Shown: piece after piece, positions 1,949 to 44,690 of the stretch
Layout of the letters: every line of letters begins with the position of its first letter
Numbering within the stretch: position 1 is the stretch's first letter
Sequence record: PP627283.1
From: Escherichia phage SM_S22
DNA: 44,820 nucleotides
Direction: 5' to 3' (one strand)
The notes under the pieces: model-generated
What the model was told of the DNA's origin: nothing
Databases searched by the model: none
The model's input: only the letters and a program-made list of their open reading frames with translations
Position numbers and translations under genes: made by a program

Positions 1949-3469
1949 ATGACCGTTAACGTTGACAACCAGCACCCACTATATGCGCGCATCGCGCCAG
2001 AGTGGAAGATGATCCGCGATTGTGTGGCAGGGGAGCGCGCAGTGAAGGCGTGCGGCCCCTTGTACCTGCCTCACCCCGCCAGTGGCGACAATACTGACCC
2101 GAAAGCACGGGCGCGGTATAAGGCGTACAAGCAACGCGCTGTATTCCTGAACGCCACCGCCCGCACACTTAACGCGCTGTTAGGCGTTGCCTTTGCTAAA
2201 CCAGTAAGTCTGGACCTTTCCGGGGCGATGGCTGACCTGATTGACGACGTAGACGGCAGTGGTATGCCGCTGCCGCAACTCCTGCGCGGTGCTATGTCGG
2301 AAGTGCTGCAATCAGGCCGTGCGGGCTTTATGGTGGACTACGATCGCCAGGCGCATTTTGATGAACTGGGTAACGTAGTGCCGCAGACAGCCGCCGAGAT
2401 GGCGTCACACCGCCCGCTCATCCGCCTGTATACGGCAGAACAGATCATCAACTGGCGGCAGACCCACGGCGTAGATACGCTAATTGTGCTGAAGGAAACG
2501 GACGAAATCAGCACCGAAGACCCGGACGACTTCGCAAACCACGAAGTAACAATCTGGACCGAGCTTCGCATGATTGACGGCAAGGCACACGCCCGCCGCT
2601 GGTTTTACAACGCGGACACGTCCGAAGTGCAAATGGACTTACCGCGTGGCTTCACCCGCACCGATCTCGTACCGCTGGTGGATGCGGGCGGTAATGCGCT
2701 TACGCAACTGCCATTTTGCTGGTGTGGTGCGGTGGACAACAACGCGACACCGGACGCCGCACCGCTGGCGGATATTGCGTCCATCAACATTAAGCACTAC
2801 AACGCCGAAGCGGACGTCGCCGAGATTGCGCACATCGTGGGCCAACCTACACTCATTGCGACTGGTCTGACCCAATCATGGGCGGACAAGAACCTGAAAG
2901 GAGGCATCGCGCTCGGGGCAACTAAGGGCGTTATCCTGGGCCAGAACATGGACGCCAAACTGCTTCAGGCGGAGGAGCGCAACTTGTCTGTTGCCCTATG
3001 TGAGCGCCGAGAATTGCAAATGGCTAAACTGGGCGCGGCCCTGGTCGAGAAGGGGACCGCACCTAAGACGGCAACTGAAGCGGCCTACGATGCGCAGACT
3101 GATAACAGTATCCTGTCACTGATTGCCGGTAACGTTGAGAAGGCTTTCAACCGTGCGCTGCAGATCGTCAAGCTGTTCACGGGAGACACCGCAGATCAAC
3201 GTGTAACGCTGAATAAGTTCTACACCGAAATCACGGTTGACGCACAGCTTATGACCGCAATGATGGCGGGTGTGCAGACAGGTACGGTCCGTCTGGCGGA
3301 CTTTATCAAGTGGATGATGGCCCAGGGTGTCATCGACGACTCGCAAACCGTCGAGCAGGTGGAAGACGAATTGCGAAATCAGAATCCATTGCCTCAAATG
3401 TCCCCTGATGCGGTAGAATCAACCGAAGAAGACCCGGACAAGGTAGCGGACAATGGCGAAGACAATTAA
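1949..3469 (+). CDS. portal protein
   Basis: 506 aa directly after terminase; RBS AAGGAAA upstream; acidic C-terminal tail. Confidence 0.75.
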   Translation: MTVNVDNQHPLYARIAPEWKMIRDCVAGERAVKACGPLYLPHPASGDNTDPKARARYKAYKQRAVFLNATARTLNALLGVAFAKPVSLDLSGAMADLIDDVDGSGMPLPQLLRGAMSEVLQSGRAGFMVDYDRQAHFDELGNVVPQTAAEMASHRPLIRLYTAEQIINWRQTHGVDTLIVLKETDEISTEDPDDFANHEVTIWTELRMIDGKAHARRWFYNADTSEVQMDLPRGFTRTDLVPLVDAGGNALTQLPFCWCGAVDNNATPDAAPLADIASINIKHYNAEADVAEIAHIVGQPTLIATGLTQSWADKNLKGGIALGATKGVILGQNMDAKLLQAEERNLSVALCERRELQMAKLGAALVEKGTAPKTATEAAYDAQTDNSILSLIAGNVEKAFNRALQIVKLFTGDTADQRVTLNKFYTEITVDAQLMTAMMAGVQTGTVRLADFIKWMMAQGVIDDSQTVEQVEDELRNQNPLPQMSPDAVESTEEDPDKVADNGEDN

Positions 3470-5004: not shown

Positions 5005-5769
5005 TTAGCGAGGAATGCCGCAAATCTCGTTGAGTGTTTTCACATCCAGCGCCACCGCCGTGGATTTTGGCTTGTCCGGGTATGGGATGAATTGCTCAAC
5101 TTCAGGCCATGCCTTAATCAGCTTCTTGTCAGTATTGTGCAGGTCCAGCACACCGGTAACGGTGAGTTTGAACGCATCATACTTCGCGCGCAACTCGCGA
5201 CGGGCCTTGTCGTTACGGTCCAGGCGCTTACAGAAATCATGGTCCGCCGGGTAGTCTATACGACCGCGTGGCTTATATATCGGCAGCGATTTCCCGTCGT
5301 CGTCGACTTCGCACACTGACGCTAACAAAATTTCCTCATACCCAGGCACAATATCGCCGAGATCGGGAGACAGTTTATTCATGTATTTATACTCCCAGTA
5401 TCCGCGATGTACTCGGAATCGGTGTCCGTCTCCGCTCAATGACACGGTACGGACGTTTCCGCCTGCGTTGATCTCGAAAGTGGCGTCGTAAACGCTGCCT
5501 ATACCATATGGGTTGTCGGCGACATGTCTATACGTCGCCTTATTGGTGTACACACAGACGCCGTACATCTGCGACGGGTCATCGCCGATCGCTTCAATGC
5601 GCTCACGTAGCTCGGCGAACGTATGAATTCCTTCCGGCATACAGTCCAGCGTAATGGCGTACGCCAGATTTCGAGAGTCCATCATGATTGATTTGGCTTC
5701 GGTCGCGATTTCGTGGTCGCGCAGGATGTTAGCCAGAATCTGGTTTTTAATGTCTTTCGTCAGTCTCAT
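5005..5769 (-). CDS. hypothetical protein, reverse-oriented moron in head module
   Basis: About 254 aa from ATG at 5769 (RBS GAGGA); the longer ORF to 6216 is rejected because it overlaps the scaffold gene; own promoter TTGCAA-17-TATATT. Confidence 0.5.
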   Translation of the reverse strand: MRLTKDIKNQILANILRDHEIATEAKSIMMDSRNLAYAITLDCMPEGIHTFAELRERIEAIGDDPSQMYGVCVYTNKATYRHVADNPYGIGSVYDATFEINAGGNVRTVSLSGDGHRFRVHRGYWEYKYMNKLSPDLGDIVPGYEEILLASVCEVDDDGKSLPIYKPRGRIDYPADHDFCKRLDRNDKARRELRAKYDAFKLTVTGVLDLHNTDKKLIKAWPEVEQFIPYPDKPKSTAVALDVKTLNEICGIPR

Positions 5770-5798
5770 TAGTGTGTCCTCGTTGTTGGTGTGCAACC

Positions 5799-5862
5799 AA
5801 TATATGCAACCAATACGAGGATTGCAAGCGAATTTTGCGATTATTTTTATCGCTGATAATAT
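5799..5862. promoter_or_regulatory. divergent sigma70-like promoter pair
   Basis: Minus: TTGCAA(5822-5827)-17-TATATT(rc of 5799-5804). Plus: TTGCGA(5835-5840)-16-TGaTAATAT(5854-5862). Two TGCAACCAAT motif copies. Confidence 0.5.
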
Positions 5863-5917
5863 TAGAAGCGTGAAGTCGAGCGGGTGGCCTGCTCTGCCAC
5901 AATCCCAGGGGGATAGC

Positions 5918-10710: not shown

Positions 10711-11073
10711 ATGGCAAAAGCACCACTCTTCACACTTGACCCTAAGCCGACCTTTAAGCTGCCGATTGAGATCCCGCGCCCCGGCGAAAACGAACCGGGA
10801 AAAATGACGTTTACCGTCCGCCACCGCCCGATCGACGAATTTTCGCAAACCATGCAGGACACCGAACGGAAGCTGTCGGAATATGACGACAATGACCCGG
10901 ACGGCTTTAACGTTATGGTCGAGGCCATCATGCACGTCGCTGAAGGCTGGAATCTTCCGGACGAATTTAACGCGGAGAACGTCCGCCGCCTGGTGGTCAA
11001 CTACCCGCGCGCGTTCGGTGTGTTCCACACGTCGTACTATCTCGAACTGATGGGATTGCGTGAAAAAAACTAA
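10711..11073 (+). CDS. tail assembly chaperone (gpG-like)
   Basis: 120 aa from ATG 10711; ends with slippery A AAA AAC just before the stop; precedes tape measure. Confidence 0.6.
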   Translation: MAKAPLFTLDPKPTFKLPIEIPRPGENEPGKMTFTVRHRPIDEFSQTMQDTERKLSEYDDNDPDGFNVMVEAIMHVAEGWNLPDEFNAENVRRLVVNYPRAFGVFHTSYYLELMGLREKN

Positions 11074-11387: not shown

Positions 11388-11708
11388 TGAAGCGGGACAG
11401 GCGGGACGTCCCGTTTTGTCCCACCTCTGTAAAACCGCATATCTAATCACTTTTATTGCATAAACTCAAAGCGGGACAGGCGGGACGTCCCGCTTTGTCA
11501 CACCCTGTAAATGTGCATACCTATGCAGATTTCGTGCATAAAACAAACGGGACAAAAAGCGGGACAAACACGAGGCGGGACAAAGCGGGACAGCACCCCG
11601 TCCCCGCCAGTGCTGCCGCGGTTTTCAGCCGATCGGGACAGCGGGACAGCACCCCAGTCTTTCAGACTAGACGGGGGTCAGCGGCCCCCCTCGTCTGAGA
11701 CTGAATAA
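11388..11708 (+). repeat. CGGGACA-repeat element, copy 1
   Basis: Two ~75-bp units each holding palindrome GCGGGACGTCCCGC, then a 112-bp unit (11548-11659) with six CGGGACA copies and a 49-bp hairpin tail (11660-11708) that are identical to 39478-39749. Confidence 0.85.
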
Positions 11709-11771
11709 GGTTTGTTTTGAAATCGCTGATACAATATCCATCGGCAACTGCATAAAAAAGGGGACTGCATA

Positions 11772-21617: not shown

Positions 21618-21640
21618 AAGCCCCGAAAGGGGCTTATTTG
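21618..21640. terminator. hairpin between convergent genes
   Basis: AAGCCCC-GAAA-GGGGCTT. Confidence 0.45.
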
Positions 21641-21852
21641 CAGGTTGTGCTTTTGAAATGGTCTACAGACACGTACTGGAAGCTAAACGGATATCCCGCC
21701 CTTAGCATTTTATGCCCGGAGAAGTCTGCAACACCATACACAGGGACCGCATAATCCATACCGCCAGTGTGGTATGTCGCGTCGCAGATCTTGCCAGGAA
21801 TAGTGGAGCAACCAGACAAAAGAACCGCACAAATCATAATTAAGGTTTTCAT
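21634..21852 (-). CDS. small lipoprotein (superinfection-exclusion candidate)
   Basis: 72 aa from ATG 21852 (RBS AGGGGA); signal peptide MKTLIMICAVLLSGC with lipobox; promoter TTGCAA-16-TAATAC upstream; divergent from tail fibre gene. Confidence 0.55.
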   Translation of the reverse strand: MKTLIMICAVLLSGCSTIPGKICDATYHTGGMDYAVPVYGVADFSGHKMLRAGYPFSFQYVSVDHFKSTTCK

Positions 21853-21932
21853 GGTATCATCCCCTATATTTGGTTGAGTTTTAGTATTACACCGCTCAGC
21901 CAGGATTGCAACCAATTTAAGAGGATTCAGCT

Positions 21933-23556: not shown

Positions 23557-23580
23557 GGGCCGTGCGGCCCTTTTTTTTTT
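23557..23580 (+). terminator. intrinsic terminator
   Basis: GC hairpin followed by ten T residues. Confidence 0.6.
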
Positions 23581-24154
23581 AGTTTGAGTTCTCCCAGTCC
23601 ATTTTGCGCCGCACCAGCGGGCTTTCGTAGTATTCCTTACCATCCACTTCCACCAGGGGCCAGTCGTTCACTATCACGTATGGCTCCGCAATATCCTCAA
23701 TCACGCCATGCGCGCTATGTTGTCCGAAATCTACGCCCACCAGGATAACCCCGGCAACGCGACGAGTGAGGTACTCGCGAGCGCAACGTGCCTCGACCAG
23801 TCCTCGACGTATGCCGCTGGTGGCCTTAACCTCGTAGGTCCAGACGGCATCGATCACATGCTCGCGGAAGTCGGGACCGGATTTTACCTTGCGCTTGCCG
23901 ACCATGATAATATCGCCTCGGTCGATAGTGTTAGCGCTAAACAGGCCGGTACGCATGAGTAATCCTTGCGGGATACAGCTACGCCCGCCCGCCTGCCCTT
24001 CGAGGTACATACCCGCAAACATCTCACCAAGTACCCCGACAAGACGGCTTTGCTTGCAAGCGTCGGACTTATACCGCCACTGGTCAAACTCGATGCTTGC
24101 TATCATTGCCGCCAGGTGGAATTGTTTACCAGATATTTCATATTCGCCGTACAT
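23579..24154 (-). CDS. hypothetical protein, possible PD-(D/E)XK-type nuclease
   Basis: 191 aa; weak GDIIMVGK...PDF...YEVK pattern; last gene of minus-strand block. Confidence 0.3.
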   Translation of the reverse strand: MYGEYEISGKQFHLAAMIASIEFDQWRYKSDACKQSRLVGVLGEMFAGMYLEGQAGGRSCIPQGLLMRTGLFSANTIDRGDIIMVGKRKVKSGPDFREHVIDAVWTYEVKATSGIRRGLVEARCAREYLTRRVAGVILVGVDFGQHSAHGVIEDIAEPYVIVNDWPLVEVDGKEYYESPLVRRKMDWENSN

Positions 24155-24196: not shown

Positions 24197-24718
24197 TTAT
24201 TTAAGTGCGCCAGTCACCAGTGTTTTTTCCATGTTACGGAAGTCTTCCGGCGTCATAAGGATTTTGGATCCGTCTTCGCCAGTGAGCACGACCATAGGCT
24301 GAACGTCCTGGTCTACGACGCCGAAATTGGCGGCATTAACAGTCTTGCCTGCCGATGACGAAGGATGCCACGTCCCCGCGGTGGCGATGGGCCAACCTTT
24401 AAGGCTGTCGAATTGTGCTGCCGTTGTATCGACCTGAATCTCGTCGTGCACGGTCATGTACGACTCGCCCAGCAGGGCGGAATACGCTACCATGTCGACG
24501 ATATTGTCCTCCTGGTGCTTACGGTGCTGACGAACCAGCTTGAGGCAGATCAGGAAGGTCCAGGCTTCCTGCTCGGTAAGGTCGCGACCGGTAAGCGCGT
24601 TAAACACGGCCGCGATCTGTTTAGCGCTGCGTTCTTCTTTCGCGTTGTCATAGCCGTTTTCTTTTCCGCGCTGTTCCATAGTGGTGGCGGCGTTTTTGCA
24701 GTATTCGTATGCTTTCAC
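24197..24718 (-). CDS. hypothetical protein, possibly MazG-like all-alpha NTP pyrophosphohydrolase; GTG start
   Basis: 173 aa; acidic helix pattern EQEAW...EDNIVDMVAYSALLGE; weak. Confidence 0.3.
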   Translation of the reverse strand: MKAYEYCKNAATTMEQRGKENGYDNAKEERSAKQIAAVFNALTGRDLTEQEAWTFLICLKLVRQHRKHQEDNIVDMVAYSALLGESYMTVHDEIQVDTTAAQFDSLKGWPIATAGTWHPSSSAGKTVNAANFGVVDQDVQPMVVLTGEDGSKILMTPEDFRNMEKTLVTGALK

Positions 24719-24779
24719 GATGTTTTCCTTTTTAGTGGGAGGCGTATTGCCCCGACGCGTTAACTATAGTGCAACCAAC

Positions 24780-25250
24780 CTATTGGTTGCAAGTGAATTT
24801 TGCAACGTTTATCGCGTAAATTTTCGGGACCAAATCACCACACGCCCGACGAATTGCCGCGATGTTCTTCTCGCAATCTTCAATGATGACCAGTTCCGAC
24901 ACGTCCGCATAGCAGACCATTTTGAACACGGCGCACGCCTTAAACTCAGGCGGCGGGGTGTCGTCCTGCATGTGGCGCATAAACAACCGGCCTACCGGGA
25001 AGACCTCCAATTGCCTGGCGGTGGTGTCCCAGCATTCTCGCTGCCGGTTGGTCAGATACGCGATCTCGAAGCCTTGCTCTTTATACATGCTCAACAGCGG
25101 CAGCATATCCATGTTAAGGTCTTCGCGTACGTGCGCTTTGTGCCACTTCGCCCAAAATGTTGATTTGGTTTTTATCCCCGGCACCAGGTCGGCACGCGCA
25201 TCACTTGACCCGTTAATAACGCCATCCAAATCGCAAATCAGTAATTTCAT
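24780..25250 (-). CDS. HAD-superfamily phosphatase (nucleotidase / PNK-phosphatase-like)
   Basis: 156 aa; HAD motif I LICDLDGVI at N-terminus. Confidence 0.5.
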   Translation of the reverse strand: MKLLICDLDGVINGSSDARADLVPGIKTKSTFWAKWHKAHVREDLNMDMLPLLSMYKEQGFEIAYLTNRQRECWDTTARQLEVFPVGRLFMRHMQDDTPPPEFKACAVFKMVCYADVSELVIIEDCEKNIAAIRRACGDLVPKIYAINVAKFTCNQ

Positions 25251-25471: not shown

Positions 25472-25937
25472 GGAGTTCTCCTTCGCTCATTATTTCAATT
25501 CGTGCGCTGCCGCTGGGCGGCGCTTCGTCAAAGATTATCAATTGCTGGCATTTGTTATTGCTCGGCCCGACTTCACCGGTGACAGCGTGAATGAATCTAA
25601 TCCGCCAGTCCAGAAGAATTATCAGGTTTGCAGTCTTCCGGGCCAGCTTCGCCCACTTCGTCGACGTGTCCTGATTCAGTAGCATGACCGTCCGGCGTCC
25701 GTGCGCTGCGCACTCCACCCACGGCAGCGGATCGGAATACGGCGGATTGCACCACTTCCACCCTTTCAACTCCGCCCAGTCCGCATCAAGCGCGCTATGT
25801 TCTGCCGTGAAGTAACGCGGTAGCAGATGGTTGGCGTCGCTTGCCGCCATATCGTAACGGAATCGGAACTTACGGCGCAGCGGTTTAAATAAAGCTGGCG
25901 GCGTGCGCCAGCTATCTTTTTGCTCACTCTTCTGCAT
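25452..25937 (-). CDS. DNA N6-adenine methyltransferase (phage Dam family)
   Basis: 161 aa; WRTPP near N-terminus and NPPY motif (WCNPPYS). Confidence 0.65.
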   Translation of the reverse strand: MQKSEQKDSWRTPPALFKPLRRKFRFRYDMAASDANHLLPRYFTAEHSALDADWAELKGWKWCNPPYSDPLPWVECAAHGRRTVMLLNQDTSTKWAKLARKTANLIILLDWRIRFIHAVTGEVGPSNNKCQQLIIFDEAPPSGSARIEIMSEGELLEYLSR

Positions 25938-26388
25938 GGTCGGTGTCTATCGCATAAAGTGGAGTCTTACCACCTTTATTGATGACGCGTGCAACGCGCT
26001 TTGATTCCTCAGCACTAAGCGGGCGCTCGTCTGGGTAGAAGCTGCCGTTTGTAGGGTTGCGCCACGCCATAAGCACAAGGTCTTTCCGGGCGATCGAAGA
26101 CTGGCGGCCCTTCGGACGCACGTACTCCTCGGCCCGTTTGCAATGCTCACGCAGCCCGTCGGCAGTGATGCGGTTTAGCGCGACGGTGGTTGTGTACCCG
26201 GTGCGCTGCATAATACCCATCAACTCATACAGCAGATCGAAGCGCTCCTCTAATTCCTTGCGCGCCTTCTCCTCGCCTTCATAGCTCGCCAGGTAGGTGT
26301 CTGCCAGCGCGCTAACACGTTCGGCATGTTCGCGGGCTTCGAGGCATTGTGCGGCCCAGTAATCTTTTTCTTCTTGTAAAATTTTCAT
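25924..26388 (-). CDS. hypothetical protein
   Basis: 154 aa, helical/charged. Confidence 0.35.
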   Translation of the reverse strand: MKILQEEKDYWAAQCLEAREHAERVSALADTYLASYEGEEKARKELEERFDLLYELMGIMQRTGYTTTVALNRITADGLREHCKRAEEYVRPKGRQSSIARKDLVLMAWRNPTNGSFYPDERPLSAEESKRVARVINKGGKTPLYAIDTDHAEE

Positions 26389-26443
26389 CGTGTTGTCTCC
26401 GGGGTATTAAAAAGGGCGTCCAAACCGGACACCCTCAATATAA

Positions 26444-26470
26444 TGCAACCAATATGATTGTGCAACCAAT
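26444..26470 (-). promoter_or_regulatory. internal sigma70-like promoter with TGCAACCAAT pair
   Basis: Minus-strand read TTGCAC-17-TATATT; two TGCAACCAAT copies (26444-26453, 26461-26470). Confidence 0.4.
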
Positions 26471-29173: not shown

Positions 29174-29347
29174 TTATTTTTGTTCTGCACGGTAGCGGCG
29201 CTGCCGTTCGCGCTCTTTCTTATTGCGGCACGATTTGCACTCTGCCCGATACCCGTCTGGACTGCGCGCAGTCTTACCGGTGTATTTGTGGAACTGGGAT
29301 AGCGGCTTTACACAGCCGCAATTACTACAACGTTTTTCTTCAATCAT
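29174..29347 (-). CDS. small zinc-ribbon protein
   Basis: About 58 aa from internal ATG (RBS GAGGA); CSNCGC...CKSC. Confidence 0.3.
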   Translation of the reverse strand: MIEEKRCSNCGCVKPLSQFHKYTGKTARSPDGYRAECKSCRNKKERERQRRYRAEQK

Positions 29348-29387
29348 CTCTAAAATCCTCGATATGGCTAACCGGCACACTATACCG

Positions 29388-29666
29388 CTATGCGACCAAT
29401 TCAGCAACCAATAAATCGCAGTCGGATATGTTGTCGATAACGCGAACGTCAGCACCGCGGCGGGCCATTCGCTCATGTTCACGTACCTGGTGCGGCTTCG
29501 GTTTTCCTCCGGGGCGCTTCACTTCGACGAACACTATTTTGCCGTTGATGATAATAATCAGGTCGGGCGCACCCGCGCGCCCCTCCCATGCCAGTTTTCG
29601 GCAGAATCCTCCGACCTCTTTCACCCGTTTCATCAGGTGACGCTGCACCTTGCCTTCTGGTGTCAT
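29388..29666 (-). CDS. VRR-NUC domain nuclease
   Basis: About 92 aa; APDLIIIINGKIVFVEVKRPGGKPKPHQ. Confidence 0.55.
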   Translation of the reverse strand: MTPEGKVQRHLMKRVKEVGGFCRKLAWEGRAGAPDLIIIINGKIVFVEVKRPGGKPKPHQVREHERMARRGADVRVIDNISDCDLLVAELVA

Positions 29667-33628: not shown

Positions 33629-33721
33629 CATTTTCCAATTCCTCATTTTCACATGTATCGGGGTTATTGGAAGCCACCCCGTTCGGCTTGGTTGCTAATC
33701 TACTTGGTTGCGCTTAAGCGG

Positions 33722-33964
33722 TCAAGCATTTTCATTAAAAAGATTTCTGGTCACGTAGTTGGTGGCGTTCTCGATCCAGCTTAGCGGCGGTCGGTCGATG
33801 TTCTTCTCCACCCACCCGACGGCAGCGTCACTATACCCGTCATCCAGCCAGCGAGTCGGGTGGCGAAACATCCACGCCACCATTAACACGCCTTGCACGC
33901 AATGCAGGATAAAGCCCAGCGCGCCGAGCAAAAACATCAATAAGATTGCAAATACTTTATTCAT
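33722..33964 (-). CDS. small membrane protein
   Basis: 80 aa; hydrophobic N-terminal segments. Confidence 0.35.
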   Translation of the reverse strand: MNKVFAILLMFLLGALGFILHCVQGVLMVAWMFRHPTRWLDDGYSDAAVGWVEKNIDRPPLSWIENATNYVTRNLFNENA

Positions 33965-36309: not shown

Positions 36310-36509
36310 GTTTTATATCTCCGATTGGTTAAGTTTAGGTGTCGACCATTAACTTCGTCGGTGGCCTTAACATATTGCCAGGTTACGCGTTCTCCCGTTC
36401 GGGTAGTGGACCTGGTTATATAATCACGGTTGGGAATCCTGACACTTCGATCCGGCCCCTGCGTTGCCCCTCTCCAGTTTGCGTCCTGCATCCTGTCGAC
36501 GAGGTGAAT

Positions 36510-36545
36510 ATTAGATTGGTTGCATGAGGGAGTCAACAACTAATT
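36510..36545 (-). promoter_or_regulatory. early sigma70-like promoter
   Basis: Minus-strand read TTGACT-17-TAATAT with TGCAACCAAT in the spacer. Confidence 0.5.
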
Positions 36546-36547
36546 TC

Positions 36548-36640
36548 AAAAAAAAAGCGCCGAAGCAAAATGCGACGGCGCTAACCAATAAGAGACAATG
36601 AGACGGGAGTATTATTACACGCGTGCGCGCCCGTTTCAAT
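36548..36640 (-). ncRNA. promoter-proximal terminated transcript (candidate sRNA or attenuator leader, ~55 nt)
   Basis: Minus-strand TTGAAA(rc of 36634-36639)-16-TAATAA(rc of 36612-36617), then hairpin 36556-36582 with nine-T run. Confidence 0.3.
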
Positions 36641-36711
36641 ATCCAAAGGATTTGACACCTTGTGGTTTTAGGTGTAGTTTCGTTGGTCATTAACCAACTG
36701 AGGGCAGAGCA

Positions 36712-37041
36712 ATGAATGTAAACGACGCAATCGAAATGTTAACGACGACTGTTAGCAGTGAAACAAGCCGGTCATGGGCTTATACCGATGCCGTTGGGGC
36801 GGTGCTATTTGAGGTCGAGCGCCTGCGCAGTGTAGAAAAAGAATTACGCGCCAGGCTGGAATTGCTCAACGGTACGGCGGCGAGCAAGCTACAAAAACAC
36901 AATGAAGAAATGGAAGAATACAAAAAGCAGGTTATCCGTTTGCGCGCCGAGGGCAAATCCTGGGCGATGATTGCCGAGTTGACCGGAATTAATCAGAGCA
37001 CAGTGCGCTCTTGGGTACGCAATAACAAAACTTCTAAGTAA
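36712..37041 (+). CDS. HTH DNA-binding protein (putative regulator)
   Basis: 109 aa; C-terminal HTH-like SWAMIAELTGINQSTVRSWV. Confidence 0.5.
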   Translation: MNVNDAIEMLTTTVSSETSRSWAYTDAVGAVLFEVERLRSVEKELRARLELLNGTAASKLQKHNEEMEEYKKQVIRLRAEGKSWAMIAELTGINQSTVRSWVRNNKTSK

Positions 37042-39326: not shown

Positions 39327-39427
39327 CATTGGTTGCCGATATGGGAATTCACATATCGCTAAACGATTAATTTGTGCGCGTATTGGTTGCCATTCTACGT
39401 GTTTTTATCTGGTCGCATTGGTTGCCG
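39327..39427 (+). repeat. three direct copies of 13-bp GCGCATTGGTTGCC-like box
   Basis: Copies near 39329, 39376, 39412; variant of the ATTGGTTGCA motif. Confidence 0.7.
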
Positions 39428-39477
39428 TGTAGTGTAAATATAATGAATAGTTATGCAATAAAACTGCATAAAGTAAG

Positions 39478-39749
39478 CGGGACAAAAAGCGGGACAAACA
39501 CGAGGCGGGACAAAGCGGGACAGCACCCCGTCCCCGCCAGTGCTGCCGCGGTTTTCAGCCGATCGGGACAGCGGGACAGCACCCCAGTCGGGACAAAAAG
39601 CGGGACAAACACGAGGCGGGACAAAGCGGGACAGCACCCCGTCCCCGCCAGTGCTGCCGCGGTTTTCAGCCGATCGGGACAGCGGGACAGCACCCCAGTC
39701 TTTCAGACTAGACGGGGGTCAGCGGCCCCCCTCGTCTGAGACTGAATAA
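39478..39749 (+). repeat. CGGGACA-repeat element, copy 2 (tandemly duplicated 111-bp unit plus hairpin tail)
   Basis: Units 39478-39589 and 39589-39700, each with six CGGGACA copies and inverted GTCCC; tail 39701-39749 identical to 11660-11708. Confidence 0.85.
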
Positions 39750-39917
39750 AATCCGGGGATTGCAAAATACACGGCAGCATGACGCGAAGTGCGGTCATCG
39801 ATGAACTAGGCAACCAATGCGAGTTGCATTATGCGGAGTGAAAAACGCAGTTTGCAGTTGCAGCAGATAGCGATCAACTTTTTCATGCGCGTGATTAATA
39901 TTGGTTGCATCCGCCCT

Positions 39918-39946
39918 GGCACCCTGCTATATTGGTTGCACACCAA
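39918..39946 (+). promoter_or_regulatory. sigma70-like promoter with conserved leader
   Basis: TTGCAT-17-TATATT then GGTTGCACACCAACA-GGAGGG-ATG; the same leader occurs (rc) before gene 5005-5769. Confidence 0.45.
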
Positions 39947-39960
39947 CAGGAGGGCGGAAC

Positions 39961-40140
39961 ATGAAAACCGAAATGGTTAATAAGCGCGAAATCAAGATCG
40001 GCGATACGGTAGTCCACAACGGGGAGCTTCGCACTGTGTGCAAGCGAGCGTTTAGCGTCGATGCATTTATGGGCCTGCTACTTTGGGGCGACAGCTATCG
40101 TTTAGGGCATAAACTGGTTGAGAGGGTTACGGAACTATGA
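39961..40140 (+). CDS. small hypothetical protein
   Basis: 59 aa from ATG 39961 with RBS AGGAGGG. Confidence 0.35.
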   Translation: MKTEMVNKREIKIGDTVVHNGELRTVCKRAFSVDAFMGLLLWGDSYRLGHKLVERVTEL

Positions 40141-40472: not shown

Positions 40473-40742
40473 ATGGGCCGTAGGCGAGCAAAACAGCTTT
40501 CGTGGCATATCCCCCTGCATTGCATACGAATATGGGCTAAGAATGCGACTGAGGGCGATTCTGTGTACTGGAGCTATCGCGATGACGTGAAGCCGTTGAC
40601 GCAGACTCGTTACTTGCACCAGTTCGCAGCACAACACGATTTCAGGGTGCGGACTTCCTTGCAACCAATGGGGATCCGTATTATATTACGCCGGAAGCCC
40701 GCCGTTGAGCGGGTAGGCAAACACTGGAGACTGAGCAAATGA
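40473..40742 (+). CDS. hypothetical protein
   Basis: 89 aa, basic. Confidence 0.3.
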   Translation: MGRRRAKQLSWHIPLHCIRIWAKNATEGDSVYWSYRDDVKPLTQTRYLHQFAAQHDFRVRTSLQPMGIRIILRRKPAVERVGKHWRLSK

Positions 40743-43429: not shown

Positions 43430-43444
43430 TGAGCAAGCCCGCCG

Positions 43445-43472
43445 TATTGGCGGGCTTTTTATTGTTTGACCT
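43445..43472 (+). terminator. intrinsic terminator
   Basis: AGCCCGCC-GTATT-GGCGGGCT followed by T-run. Confidence 0.55.
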
Positions 43473-43547
43473 GCAACCAATTAATAGCCCATACTGCGGT
43501 CGCCGTGGTATATTGACCGCGGACAATCTGAATCAGGAAGATATACA

Positions 43548-44690
43548 ATGCACCCGCAAACTAAAATCACCGACGAGCAATTGATCGCCGAGTTGCAATC
43601 CGGCACTACCGCGAAAGAGATTGCGAAGAAGTACGGCCTTTCCCTACGAAACGTCTACATGCGCAAAGCCCGCCTGTCGAAGAAAGGTATTGGTCACGGT
43701 AATGATGCCGTAATCCGTAAGCGCGTTGCCGATGGCTTCGGCGTGAAGCGTGTCTCCGCCCTGGTGCGTGGCAATGGCGAAGAGGTCATGTCGTGGGTTA
43801 TCACAGAGCAGGACAAGGAGCGCCAGCTTGAAGCAATGCGAGCCGTTGTCGAGGGTATGAACAGCGAAATCACACCGGCAGCACCAGTAAGCGCCCCGCC
43901 TGTCCCGGTCCAGGCACTTGACCTACTCAACCTGTACACCGTGTCCGACTTCCACCTGGGCATGTTGGCATGGGGTGAGGAGACTGGCGAGGACTGGGAT
44001 ATGGCAATCGCTGAAGACCTGTTTTACCGCTGGTTTGTCGAAGCCTTCGCCCGCGCACCAGACGCAGGAACTGCCGTAATCAATATCCTCGGTGATATGG
44101 CGCATTTTGATAGCCTCGATGCCGTCACCCCAGCCAGTGGTCACATCCTGGACGCAGATACCCGATACCAGAAACTGGTCCGCTACATGATTCGCATGGT
44201 GCGTAACGTGGTAGACCTGGCGCTGCAAAAACACCACAAAGTCAAACTTCTAATCGTCCAGGGGAATCATGACGAGTCGGGTATGATTTGGCTTGCGGAG
44301 ATGTTCAATACCCTGTATGAGAGCGAGCCGCGCGTCGATGTGGACACGTCCCCGGACGTATACAAGATGGTGCAGCACGGCAAGACCACGCTGTTTTTCC
44401 ACCACGGGCACAAAGCACGCTTTGACGCAATCGAGACGGTTATGATTGCTAAGTTCAGGAAAGCATTTGGCGAAAGCGAGTACAGCTACGCGCATGTCGG
44501 TCACTTGCACCACCAGAAGATTGTAGAATCCCGCAACATGATAGTTGAACAGCACCGGACACTCGCAGCGAAAGACGCCTACGCCAGTCGTGGCGGTTGG
44601 ATGTCCGGTCGCAGCGCCAACGTCATTACCTACAGCGCCAACTACGGCGAAGTAGCGCGCTTAACCATTAGCCCGGAAATGTTGAAGTAA
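43548..44690 (+). CDS. HTH domain fused to calcineurin-like metallophosphoesterase
   Basis: 380 aa; N-terminal HTH-like TAKEIAKKYGLSLRNVY; phosphoesterase motifs DFH, GDMAHFD, GNHDE, HHGH, GHLHH in canonical order. Confidence 0.55.
   Translation: MHPQTKITDEQLIAELQSGTTAKEIAKKYGLSLRNVYMRKARLSKKGIGHGNDAVIRKRVADGFGVKRVSALVRGNGEEVMSWVITEQDKERQLEAMRAVVEGMNSEITPAAPVSAPPVPVQALDLLNLYTVSDFHLGMLAWGEETGEDWDMAIAEDLFYRWFVEAFARAPDAGTAVINILGDMAHFDSLDAVTPASGHILDADTRYQKLVRYMIRMVRNVVDLALQKHHKVKLLIVQGNHDESGMIWLAEMFNTLYESEPRVDVDTSPDVYKMVQHGKTTLFFHHGHKARFDAIETVMIAKFRKAFGESEYSYAHVGHLHHQKIVESRNMIVEQHRTLAAKDAYASRGGWMSGRSANVITYSANYGEVARLTISPEMLK

Follow-up and report, generated by a model that had tools for sequence, protein, structure and literature searches.

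The 44,820-bp stretch of Escherichia phage SM_S22 DNA analyzed here (PP627283.1; the whole stretch is called the window below) contains a short recurrent motif, (A/G)TTGGTTGC(A). On balance, we favor the view that this motif is the site of one sequence-specific DNA-binding protein, laid over about ten predicted sigma-70 promoters. Promoters with such sites appear to stand before nearly all transcription units other than the long structural operon. This reading draws on what is observed of the motif (how strongly it is enriched, how sharply it is bounded, how well it is conserved, and where it lies on consensus-type promoters), and its parts differ in strength. That the motif is an operator bound by a protein is likely, judging from these features. 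Repression as the main effect of binding is an evenly balanced call, and the identification of the binder with the helix-turn-helix (HTH) protein encoded at 36712-37041 is tentative, falling slightly short of even. The window is a complete Dhillonvirus genome (HK578/SO-1-like) with its first base at the terS ATG, and an earlier reading of the same letters (the original prediction) had proposed that the motif marks a family of phage promoters and operators.

Exact copies of ATTGGTTGCA occur 11 times on the two strands of the window, against 0.10 expected from shuffled sequence, and 18 sites are found at one mismatch or fewer, against 2.99 expected and a maximum of 9 in any shuffle. It is both the most over-represented and the most frequent 10-mer in the window, and ATTGGTTGC, with 16 copies, is the commonest 9-mer. 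The claim that the motif recurs at least 15 times is thus borne out by a strong excess over shuffles. The 18 sites start at 5792−, 5805−, 21907−, 24770−, 24782+, 26444−, 26461−, 29391−, 29403−, 36515+, 39328+, 39382+, 39417+, 39809−, 39900+, 39931+, 40660−, and 43472− (signs give the strand). The positions listed in the original prediction were right to within ~5 bp, although the pair at 29391/29403, with one mismatch each, had been missed. Its variants at 33687+ and 33703+ are real, with two mismatches each, and bring the number of sites to 20.

The sites had also been described as almost always intergenic, and their placement agrees with this: noncoding DNA makes up 7.0% of the window, and 14 of the 18 sites lie wholly inside it (binomial P = 1.5e-13). 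A similar frequency in coding regions, which would have spoken against a promoter or operator role, was not seen. Three of the others (24782, 29391, and 29403) fall in the last codons of a gene, directly upstream of the next gene, and 40660 is the sole site well inside a coding sequence (CDS), where it coincides with a predicted internal promoter. When the noncoding segments were shuffled alone, 9 exact copies stood against 0.017 expected and 14 at one mismatch or fewer against 0.35, so the enrichment is not explained by AT-rich, promoter-like composition.

Alignment of the 18 window sites, and of 110 distinct contexts from ten genomes, shows nine positions at ~2 bits, (A/g)TTGGTTGC. A tenth carries 0.8-0.9 bits, with A commoner than C in both alignments, and the eight bases on each side hold ~0 bits in both. 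Because the flanks hold essentially no information, the element is a discrete asymmetric site of 9-10 bp and no part of a longer consensus. Some copies are arranged in larger structures. The "perfect palindrome" reported at 24772/24784 is an inverted repeat at 24770-24791 whose 9-bp arms, TGCAACCAA and TTGGTTGCA, are indeed perfect, but its center is the 4-bp CCTA rather than CCT. The leader said to be shared by genes 5005-5769 (−) and 39961-40140 (+) is present before both as TATATTGGTTGCACACCAACA. An inverted pair, TTGGT-N5-ACCAA, occurs three times in the window against 0.01 expected: at 5792 and 39931, where motif copies reach +1, and at the promoter P_R described below.

Promoters were sought with a consensus scan, a looser scan, and direct reading of the sequence, and all of them are predictions. 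The sites on promoters, and the promoters themselves, are as follows; sites are motif ATTGGTTGCA unless a variant is named, and positions with a sign are relative to the predicted transcription start.

5792-5801 (−): motif at −9 to +1 of the promoter at 5827-5799, followed by CACCAACA, giving TTGGT-N5-ACCAA.
5805-5814 (−): motif in the spacer, −22 to −13, of the same promoter.
5799-5827 (−): predicted promoter TTGCAA-17-TATATT, for the Nmad5 gene 5005-5769.
21907-21916 (−): motif whose TTGCA(A) is the −35 (−40 to −31) of the promoter of the cor-like gene 21634-21852; conserved in eight genomes.
21883-21911 (−): predicted promoter TTGCAA-17-AATACT (or 16-TAATAC).
24770-24779 (−): variant GTTGGTTGCA, one mismatch, in the spacer, −23 to −14, of the promoter at 24792-24763.
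24782-24791 (+): motif, reversed, at −35 to −26; its complement TTGCAA is the −35 of the promoter at 24792-24763.
24763-24792 (−): predicted promoter TTGCAA-18-TATAGT, for 24197-24718 and 23579-24154; invariant in eight genomes.
26444-26453 (−): motif in the spacer, −23 to −14, of the promoter at 26465-26437.
26461-26470 (−): motif whose TTGCA(C) is the −35 (−40 to −31) of the same promoter.
26437-26465 (−): promoter TTGCAC-17-TATATT, predicted by manual reading, for 25924-26388 and downstream genes; the consensus scan lists the neighboring register TGCACA-16-TATATT.
29391-29400 (−): variant ATTGGTCGCA, one mismatch, at −28 to −19 of the promoter at 29407-29379.
29403-29412 (−): variant ATTGGTTGCT, one mismatch, −35 TTGCTG (−40 to −31), in the last codons of gene 29388-29666.
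29379-29407 (−): promoter TTGCTG-17-TATAGT, predicted by manual reading, for 29174-29347 and downstream genes; conserved.
33687-33696 (+): variant CTTGGTTGCT, two mismatches, reversed, at −6 to +4 of the promoter at 33725-33697; conserved.
33703-33712 (+): variant CTTGGTTGCG, two mismatches, reversed, in the spacer, −22 to −13, of the same promoter.
33697-33725 (−): predicted promoter TTGACC-17-TAGATT, for the genes of a single-stranded DNA-binding protein (Pfam Enc34_ssDNA-bd) and DNA polymerase.
36515-36524 (+): motif, reversed, in the spacer, −23 to −14, of the main leftward promoter P_L.
36508-36536 (−): P_L, predicted, TTGACT-17-TAATAT, for the leftward replication and recombination genes; TTGACA in most relatives.
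39900-39909 (+): motif whose TTGCA(T) is the −35 (−40 to −31) of the promoter at 39905-39933.
39931-39940 (+): motif at −9 to +1 of the same promoter, followed by CACCAACA (TTGGT-N5-ACCAA).
39905-39933 (+): promoter TTGCAT-17-TATATT, predicted by manual reading, for 39961-40140 and downstream genes; the −10 is TAGATT in some relatives.
40660-40669 (−): motif, reversed, at −34 to −25, inside CDS 40473-40742; its complement TTGCAA is the −35 of an internal promoter.
40659-40687 (+): predicted internal promoter TTGCAA-17-TATATT; the −10 is TACATT in relatives.
43472-43481 (−): motif, reversed, at −30 to −21, directly after the −35 of the promoter at 43466-43495 and just downstream of the terminator at 43435-43457.
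43466-43495 (+): predicted promoter TTGACC-18-CATACT, ahead of 43548-44690 and the terminase and structural genes.

Sixteen of the 20 sites overlap ten predicted sigma-70 promoters, all ten in front of genes. These promoters and P_R have −35-like and −10-like hexamers 16-18 bp apart, the latter with A as second and T as sixth base, as sigma-70 promoters do, and the hexamers are kept across genomes. Their position before genes and their conservation, including in two metagenomic relatives (L128 and L129), give weight to the predicted promoters. A fixed promoter element would hold a constant distance and orientation relative to the −10 hexamer, and the motif does not. Relative to the predicted −10 it falls into about six registers (−40 to −31, −35 to −25, −30 to −19, −23 to −13, −9 to +1, and −6 to +4), and the promoter-linked sites comprise 10 in the orientation of the promoter and 6 in the opposite one. 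The consensus-like promoters of the TTGAC type (36536, 33725, and 43466) carry the motif reversed, in the spacer or over +1. The weak promoters with a TTGCA-type −35 use the TTGCA of the motif, or the palindromic TTGCAA where an A follows the motif. The motif is short and sharply bounded, lies over core promoter elements, and is kept while its flanks diverge, all of which are features of operators. Variable registers, both orientations, and empty flanks together point to operators laid over promoters rather than to a promoter element of fixed geometry. The original link between motif and promoters therefore holds in part: the sites do accompany TTGCA(A/T/C) or TTGAC(A/T/C) −35 hexamers with TAnnnT −10 elements, but the motif does not define one promoter consensus.

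Dhillonviruses are HK578-like siphophages of E. coli, and the genus is virulent. The window is collinear with Sodalis phage SO-1 (NC_013600) at ~92% identity, and a 7-kb test segment matched ~155 phage records with at least 80% coverage. Our gene map combines the open reading frame (ORF) list with the annotations of SO-1, SECphi18, SSL-2009a, EK99P-1, Teewinot, jat, and CHD5UKE2, and the detailed comparison covers ten genomes. The rightward (+) arm holds the HTH gene 36712-37041, the primase-helicase gene, small genes, lysis genes, terminase, and all structural genes, up to 23549. The leftward (−) arm, from 36309 down to 23579, holds replication, recombination, and DNA-modification genes. Two isolated leftward genes stand within the structural region, Nmad5 (5005-5769; Pfam Nmad5) and the cor-like gene 21634-21852, whose cor annotation is taken from relatives. 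The annotations of the seven relatives list no integrase, CI-type repressor, or lysogeny gene, and a search of the window with Rfam at gathering thresholds and with ARAGORN returned no RNA family and no tRNA.

The motif is kept in all the Dhillonvirus genomes compared. In seven of them besides the window, exact copies number 8-11 per genome and copies at one mismatch or fewer 16-19, at orthologous positions. These genomes are ~90% identical overall, so the informative cases are those in which the surroundings differ. At the 5792/5805 module, the spacer outside the motif varies between genomes (atcctcgt, attgcgta, attggtgg, and gctgctgga), and both motif copies and CACCAACA are unchanged in eight genomes even though the downstream gene is swapped. 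Nmad5 is the cargo of this 5792-5827 cassette in the window, SECphi18, and Teewinot. In SO-1 its place is taken by a moron, RusA-like or "DNA pol III beta-like", whereas SSL-2009a, EK99P-1, jat, and CHD5UKE2 have small ORFs there that are unrelated; the locus 5005-5827 appears to be a hot spot of gene exchange. In the 39900/39931 module both copies are invariant, and the 17-bp spacer that separates them differs at many positions. Upstream of the 40660 site the sequence of SECphi18 is unrelated, yet TTGCAACCAAT and the −10 are kept. A 17-bp deletion in Teewinot has merged the 26444/26461 pair into a single copy. Five compared relatives have two reversed motif-like copies at promoter 43466-43495, some with two mismatches, the second lying just after the −10.

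More distant genomes extend this pattern and mark its limit. L128 and L129 are only ~70% identical to the window, with primase-helicases 66-68% identical in protein sequence, and they too have motif copies at the leftward early promoter, GCC copies past the primase-helicase gene, and paired copies at promoters. The 36515 site, kept in eight genomes, is represented in both by two overlapping copies. The Guernseyvirinae relative vB_SenS_SE1, a Salmonella phage, has homologous replication genes in the same divergent layout and shows no enriched 10-mer; it has only 2 motif hits at one mismatch or fewer and also lacks the HTH protein of the window. A search of related phages, proposed with the original prediction, thus found the motif kept in the seven Dhillonvirus genomes, L128, and L129 and not enriched in vB_SenS_SE1. 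When IMG/VR was scanned for paired motifs, the inspected hits outside Dhillonvirus were tandem coding repeats with periods of 9, 21, or 27 bp, with one exception. This is a 19-kb unrelated viral contig (L010; IMGVR_UViG_3300038463_000167) with seven exact ATTGGTTGCA copies in a 550-bp intergenic array at 2700-3260, made up of CCTAATTGGTTGCATC iterons together with GGTTGCAT and AGCAACCAG variants. Immediately downstream of the array is a gene whose product starts, by eye, like an HTH protein; this product has no detectable similarity to the HTH protein of the window and no Pfam hit. The array is probably a coincidence among millions of contigs.

The candidate for the protein that reads these sites, and the promoter from which it would be made, are located as follows.

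36712-37041 (+): candidate regulator of 109 residues, with a long helix and a C-terminal HTH (Pfam, AlphaFold2).
36652-36680 (+): P_R, predicted, TTGACA-17-TAGTTT, for the HTH and primase-helicase genes; conserved.

Among the 30 window proteins scanned, the 36712-37041 product is the only one with a Pfam DNA-binding domain: HTH_23 at 30.8 bits (cut-off 24.6), HTH_28 at 28.5 (25), and Sigma70_r4_2 at 27.8 (25.7). Its AlphaFold2 model, with a predicted local distance difference test score of 84, has helices at 21-79, 84-91, and 95-107, the last two forming a compact HTH. Profile scores above the curated cut-offs and a three-helix fold both place it in the HTH family. Members of the protein family, with 154 phage records and 24 protein clusters, come only from Dhillonvirus-like phages and occur only where the motif does. 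Searches for distant homologs returned only Dhillonvirus-like variants with the same recognition helix from the protein database, and only generic HTH hits in unrelated contigs from genome and viral contig scans.

The two ends of this protein evolve differently. Its last ~60 residues are nearly invariant, including EGKSWAMIAE(L/I)TGIN(Q/V)STVRSWVRN. The C-terminal 58 residues are 83-84% identical in L128 and L129, against 66-68% for the adjacent primase-helicase, and the HTH segment matches at 24 of 26 positions in relatives whose neighboring enzyme is 67% identical. A DNA-binding surface held in place by about twenty genomic sites would behave this way. The first ~40 residues (36712-36840) are hypervariable or replaced among close relatives, in at least six unrelated versions, which suggests that this part is an exchangeable domain for a partner or a sensor function. 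Between the primase-helicase and holin genes, the small genes have no or partial counterparts in L128 and L129 and are for that reason poor candidates for the binder; the primase-helicase or an unrecognized protein could be an alternative.

P_R itself lacks the 10-mer. Directly after its −10 lies the palindrome GTTGGT-CATTA-ACCAAC (36683-36697, +), a position taken by a perfect reversed 10-mer in L128 and by a two-mismatch copy in L129. Since this site lies over the start of the regulator's own transcript, we regard the palindrome as a candidate autoregulatory operator.

The four remaining sites form a distinct group by the primase-helicase gene.

39328-39337 (+): variant ATTGGTTGCC, one mismatch; first of three direct copies past the primase-helicase stop codon.
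39382-39391 (+): variant ATTGGTTGCC, one mismatch; second direct copy.
39417-39426 (+): variant ATTGGTTGCC, one mismatch; third direct copy, followed by an AT-rich stretch and a GGGACA repeat block.
39809-39818 (−): variant ATTGGTTGCC, one mismatch; ~90 bp upstream of the promoter at 39905-39933, with no convincing promoter of its own.

All four end in GCC in every genome examined. The layout at 39328/39382/39417 looks iteron-like, with direct repeats and an adjoining AT-rich stretch directly after the primase-helicase gene, and the SO-1 record annotates this block as a repeat region. Teewinot has five copies of a 53-bp motif-carrying unit and six GCC copies in all. From this arrangement, the four GCC copies without a convincing promoter look like iterons, and the cluster may serve as an origin, as an array of decoys, or as a partner for looping with the 39905 promoter.

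Several other explanations could account for part of these data. The motif could itself belong to the core promoter, either as an extended −35 or as a phage-specific consensus recognized by host RNA polymerase, which a phage factor may have modified, with no separate regulator. Its TTGCA resembles a −35 and serves as one in four promoters, 17 bp upstream of a TAnnnT −10 at sites 21907, 26461, 29403, and 39900; about half of the sites follow a TA, which lets TAnATT be read as a −10; and 10 of the 16 promoter-linked sites are oriented with transcription. A −35 at a workable distance is found by manual reading, however, for only 3 of the 9 such TAnATT-motif sites. The spread of registers from −40 to +4, the six inverted sites, the reversed motif at the strongest promoters (36536, 33725, and 43466), the four copies without a promoter, and flanks too poor in information to hold a fixed partner hexamer all speak against this explanation, and we consider it improbable. 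We are about as doubtful that the sites serve replication first of all, as iterons bound at an origin by the HTH protein or by the primase-helicase, and that promoter overlap is secondary, in the manner of DnaA boxes or plasmid Rep iterons in rep promoters. The three to six direct ATTGGTTGCC copies right after the primase-helicase gene with an AT-rich stretch beyond them, the varying copy number of the 53-bp unit, the HTH gene immediately upstream of the primase-helicase gene, and the repeat region flagged in SO-1 would all suit such a role. The clustered copies are nevertheless a distinct GCC variant, and the majority of sites (16 of 20) are found at promoters scattered across 38 kb, not at a single locus. 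A replication role is plausible for the GCC cluster and not for the 16 promoter sites, and to that extent it overlaps with the dispersed-operator reading.

A host protein might bind the motif instead. CytR-like proteins recognize GTTGCA-type repeats, and the pyruvate sensor PdhR is the closer comparison. The E. coli PdhR box is AATTGGTnnnACCAATT, a palindrome ATTGGT-N3-ACCAAT (PMC7660256). The phage motif shares the ATTGGT half-site hexamer with it, and three phage promoters have an inverted TTGGT/ACCAA pair. We rejected the PdhR box on spacing, since the phage palindromes have N5 rather than N3 in all three occurrences and most other phage sites are single half-sites, extended by an invariant TGC that is foreign to the PdhR box. 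The motif is also absent from vB_SenS_SE1, although that phage is only distantly related and grows on another host, and the pattern tracks the phage-encoded HTH protein. A host binder is accordingly very unlikely. Least probable of all, in our estimate, is that a single promoter cassette, spread by duplication and recombination, left the copies behind as passive remnants, with a functionless 10-mer. The 5792-5827 module does head different cargo genes, and the leaders at 5792 and 39931 are nearly identical, but similarity between sites stops abruptly at the 9-10 bp core, and copies survive ~30% sequence divergence while their surroundings change. Two further candidates were set aside: an RNA-leader hairpin of TTGGT and ACCAA, because the predicted start lies at the motif end and the 5' arm would not be transcribed, and sites for sigma-54, DnaA, IHF, or marbox proteins, whose consensus sequences do not fit by inspection.

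If the sites are operators for the HTH protein, a simple circuit can be proposed. The first gene of the rightward early operon, 36712-37041, would be made from P_R, and its product would probably be multimeric. As it accumulates, the protein would fill its sites, and those in spacers or over +1 (P_L at 36515, 5792/5805, 24770, 26444, 33687/33703, and 39931) would block RNA polymerase and shut their promoters down. Where the TTGCA of the motif serves as a weak −35 (21907, 26461, 29403, and 39900), the protein could either repress or help to recruit polymerase, giving it a dual role. Binding to the weaker palindromic site right after the P_R −10 would limit P_R by autoregulation, and the GCC-variant cluster by the primase-helicase gene could act as iterons or as a reservoir of binding sites.

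A number of points weigh against this reading. The scan tool gave 25 consensus promoter matches in 20 kb where 14 are expected, and the searched literature holds no transcription-start, binding, or promoter study for any Dhillonvirus. Where the motif doubles as a −35, in four promoters, its conservation may partly reflect promoter function, and repression of nearly all promoters by one protein leaves late-gene expression unaccounted for. For the binder, Foldseek against the PDB gives only generic LuxR/GerE, IS21-transposase, and resolvase HTHs at E ≥ 0.2, so no finer HTH family can be assigned. Motif and HTH are both invariant across the clade, which leaves no co-variation to compare. CHD5UKE2 has an HTH variant only 47% identical (NRSTIRQW for NQSTVRSW) with the same motif; many other clade-specific genes share the presence/absence pattern of the HTH gene; and a single HTH would have to read ten near-invariant asymmetric base pairs, a large number. 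The proposal of a phage-specific regulon fits the intergenic, conserved, and sigma-70-linked sites, whose register and orientation vary and of which four lack a convincing promoter, and the HTH protein that it named is a reasonable candidate on circumstantial grounds.

Asymmetric operators dispersed through other genomes are the closest parallels. The C1 repressor of phage P1 has dispersed asymmetric 17-bp operators, single or in inverted pairs, over the promoters of unrelated operons; P1 differs in being a temperate plasmid-prophage with another operator sequence and another protein family. In the iteron control of plasmids and phages, sites for Rep or an initiator are found at the origin and also in a promoter. 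The Dhillonvirus arrangement resembles it in having the same site in a tandem array by replication genes and singly or inverted over promoters, including that of the candidate binder, but most copies lie at promoters unrelated to replication and the tandem copies are the distinct GCC variant. In the cluster A mycobacteriophage L5, the gp71 repressor recognizes 13-bp asymmetric stoperators in ~20-30 copies, almost always in short intergenic gaps (PMC9283540; Brown et al. 1997 via PMC4319613). One copy lies over the early promoter and the reader is a small HTH protein (PMC9283540; Brown et al. 1997 via PMC4319613). The Dhillonvirus motif is likewise asymmetric, intergenic, and present in many copies. 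Stoperators, however, take one orientation relative to transcription and stop elongation, and gp71 is the immunity repressor of a temperate phage. The Dhillonvirus sites run 10 with and 6 against their predicted promoters, the 39809 site opposes the local genes, the annotations of relatives contain no lysogeny genes, and core promoter elements, instead of intergenic gaps at large, are where the sites lie.

Two virulent enterobacterial siphophages, coliphage T1 and Citrobacter phage Stevie, also have dispersed asymmetric repeats, of 22 bp, mostly intergenic, in 16-20 copies, and with a role left unexplained (PMC4319613). Their repeat, VWATAGCAYKWWTTGYTAAAAV, is longer, is reported to run one way, and bears no resemblance to ATTGGTTGCA by inspection, and no core-promoter register or candidate protein is described for it (PMC4319613). 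The literature that we searched contains no description of the Dhillonvirus motif or of Dhillonvirus promoters, and the motif string, in either orientation, turned up there in unrelated primers only.

The same survey turned up several other elements. A second, unrelated repeat system consists of (A/G)GCGGGACA arrays in the noncoding blocks 11388-11771 and 39470-39750, with 31 hits at one mismatch or fewer against 10.6 expected, 22 of them within the two blocks. A ~110-bp segment is single in the first block and tandemly duplicated in the second, and both blocks end in the same long hairpin, cagactagacggggg...cccctcgtctgagactg. The SO-1 record names them repeat regions A and B, and they may be an origin, a noncoding RNA, or a recombination site. 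Near the first block, a slippery run, GAAAAAAAC, at 11062-11070 sits at the end of the tail-chaperone gene 10711-11073, with an open frame on to ~11387; this is the putative site of the usual G/GT −1 frameshift of siphophage tail assembly chaperones.

Other observations concern the leaders and surroundings of the promoters. Between P_R and P_L, 36538-36639 (−) is a possible small transcription unit, with a predicted promoter TTGAAA-17-AATAAT plus a TG extension (36639-36611) and, after it, a strong terminator hairpin with a U9 tail (~36583-36540, −16.2 kcal/mol, z = −2.25). It would yield a ~60-nt RNA whose 3' end lies shortly before the P_L −35. Within the long leader of the leftward operon, 52 bp (36424-36475) match an unannotated stretch of the T1-like phage vB_EcoS_XY3 at 92% identity and a stretch of Klebsiella phage KMI8 at 86%; these genomes are otherwise unrelated to the window at the DNA level. 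Directly after the −10 of promoter 26465-26437, a terminator hairpin with a 10-bp stem at 26408-26436 (−) is followed by UUUUU (−17.6 kcal/mol, z = −3.6); read-through from upstream would stop there, and the promoter's own transcripts, short of part of the 5' arm, would escape. Just downstream of promoter 24792-24763, a short GC hairpin at 24735-24760 (−) varies in sequence and keeps its pairing (GGGGC..GCCCC, GGGGCA..TGCCCC, and GGGGGC..GCCCC), which suggests a conserved structure in the 5' untranslated region.

A stronger version of our reading is that a virulent genus runs almost its whole transcription program through one invariant asymmetric 9-10 bp operator, found at practically all promoters, the regulator's own and an iteron array included, and read by a small HTH protein with a frozen DNA-binding end and a swapped N-terminus. 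We consider this rather unlikely. If true, a lytic phage would have a master switch comparable to the stoperators, one that ties replication to transcription, and diversifying selection would act on a domain of the regulator that serves as sensor or binds a partner. Dhillonviruses, among them SECphi18 and BASEL and therapy isolates, are common in work on phage defense and phage therapy, and their gene regulation has been little studied. A motif at about ten predicted promoters and a single candidate regulator give this genus a testable wiring diagram, in which early transcription diverges from P_L and P_R and internal promoters with operators stand before the modules for replication, nucleotide modification, superinfection exclusion, and small genes. 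Within it, 5792-5827 is a compact, portable promoter-operator cassette that is naturally used for swapped-in cargo genes. If the regulator is confirmed, it would also help in explaining the dispersed repeats of T1-like virulent phages.

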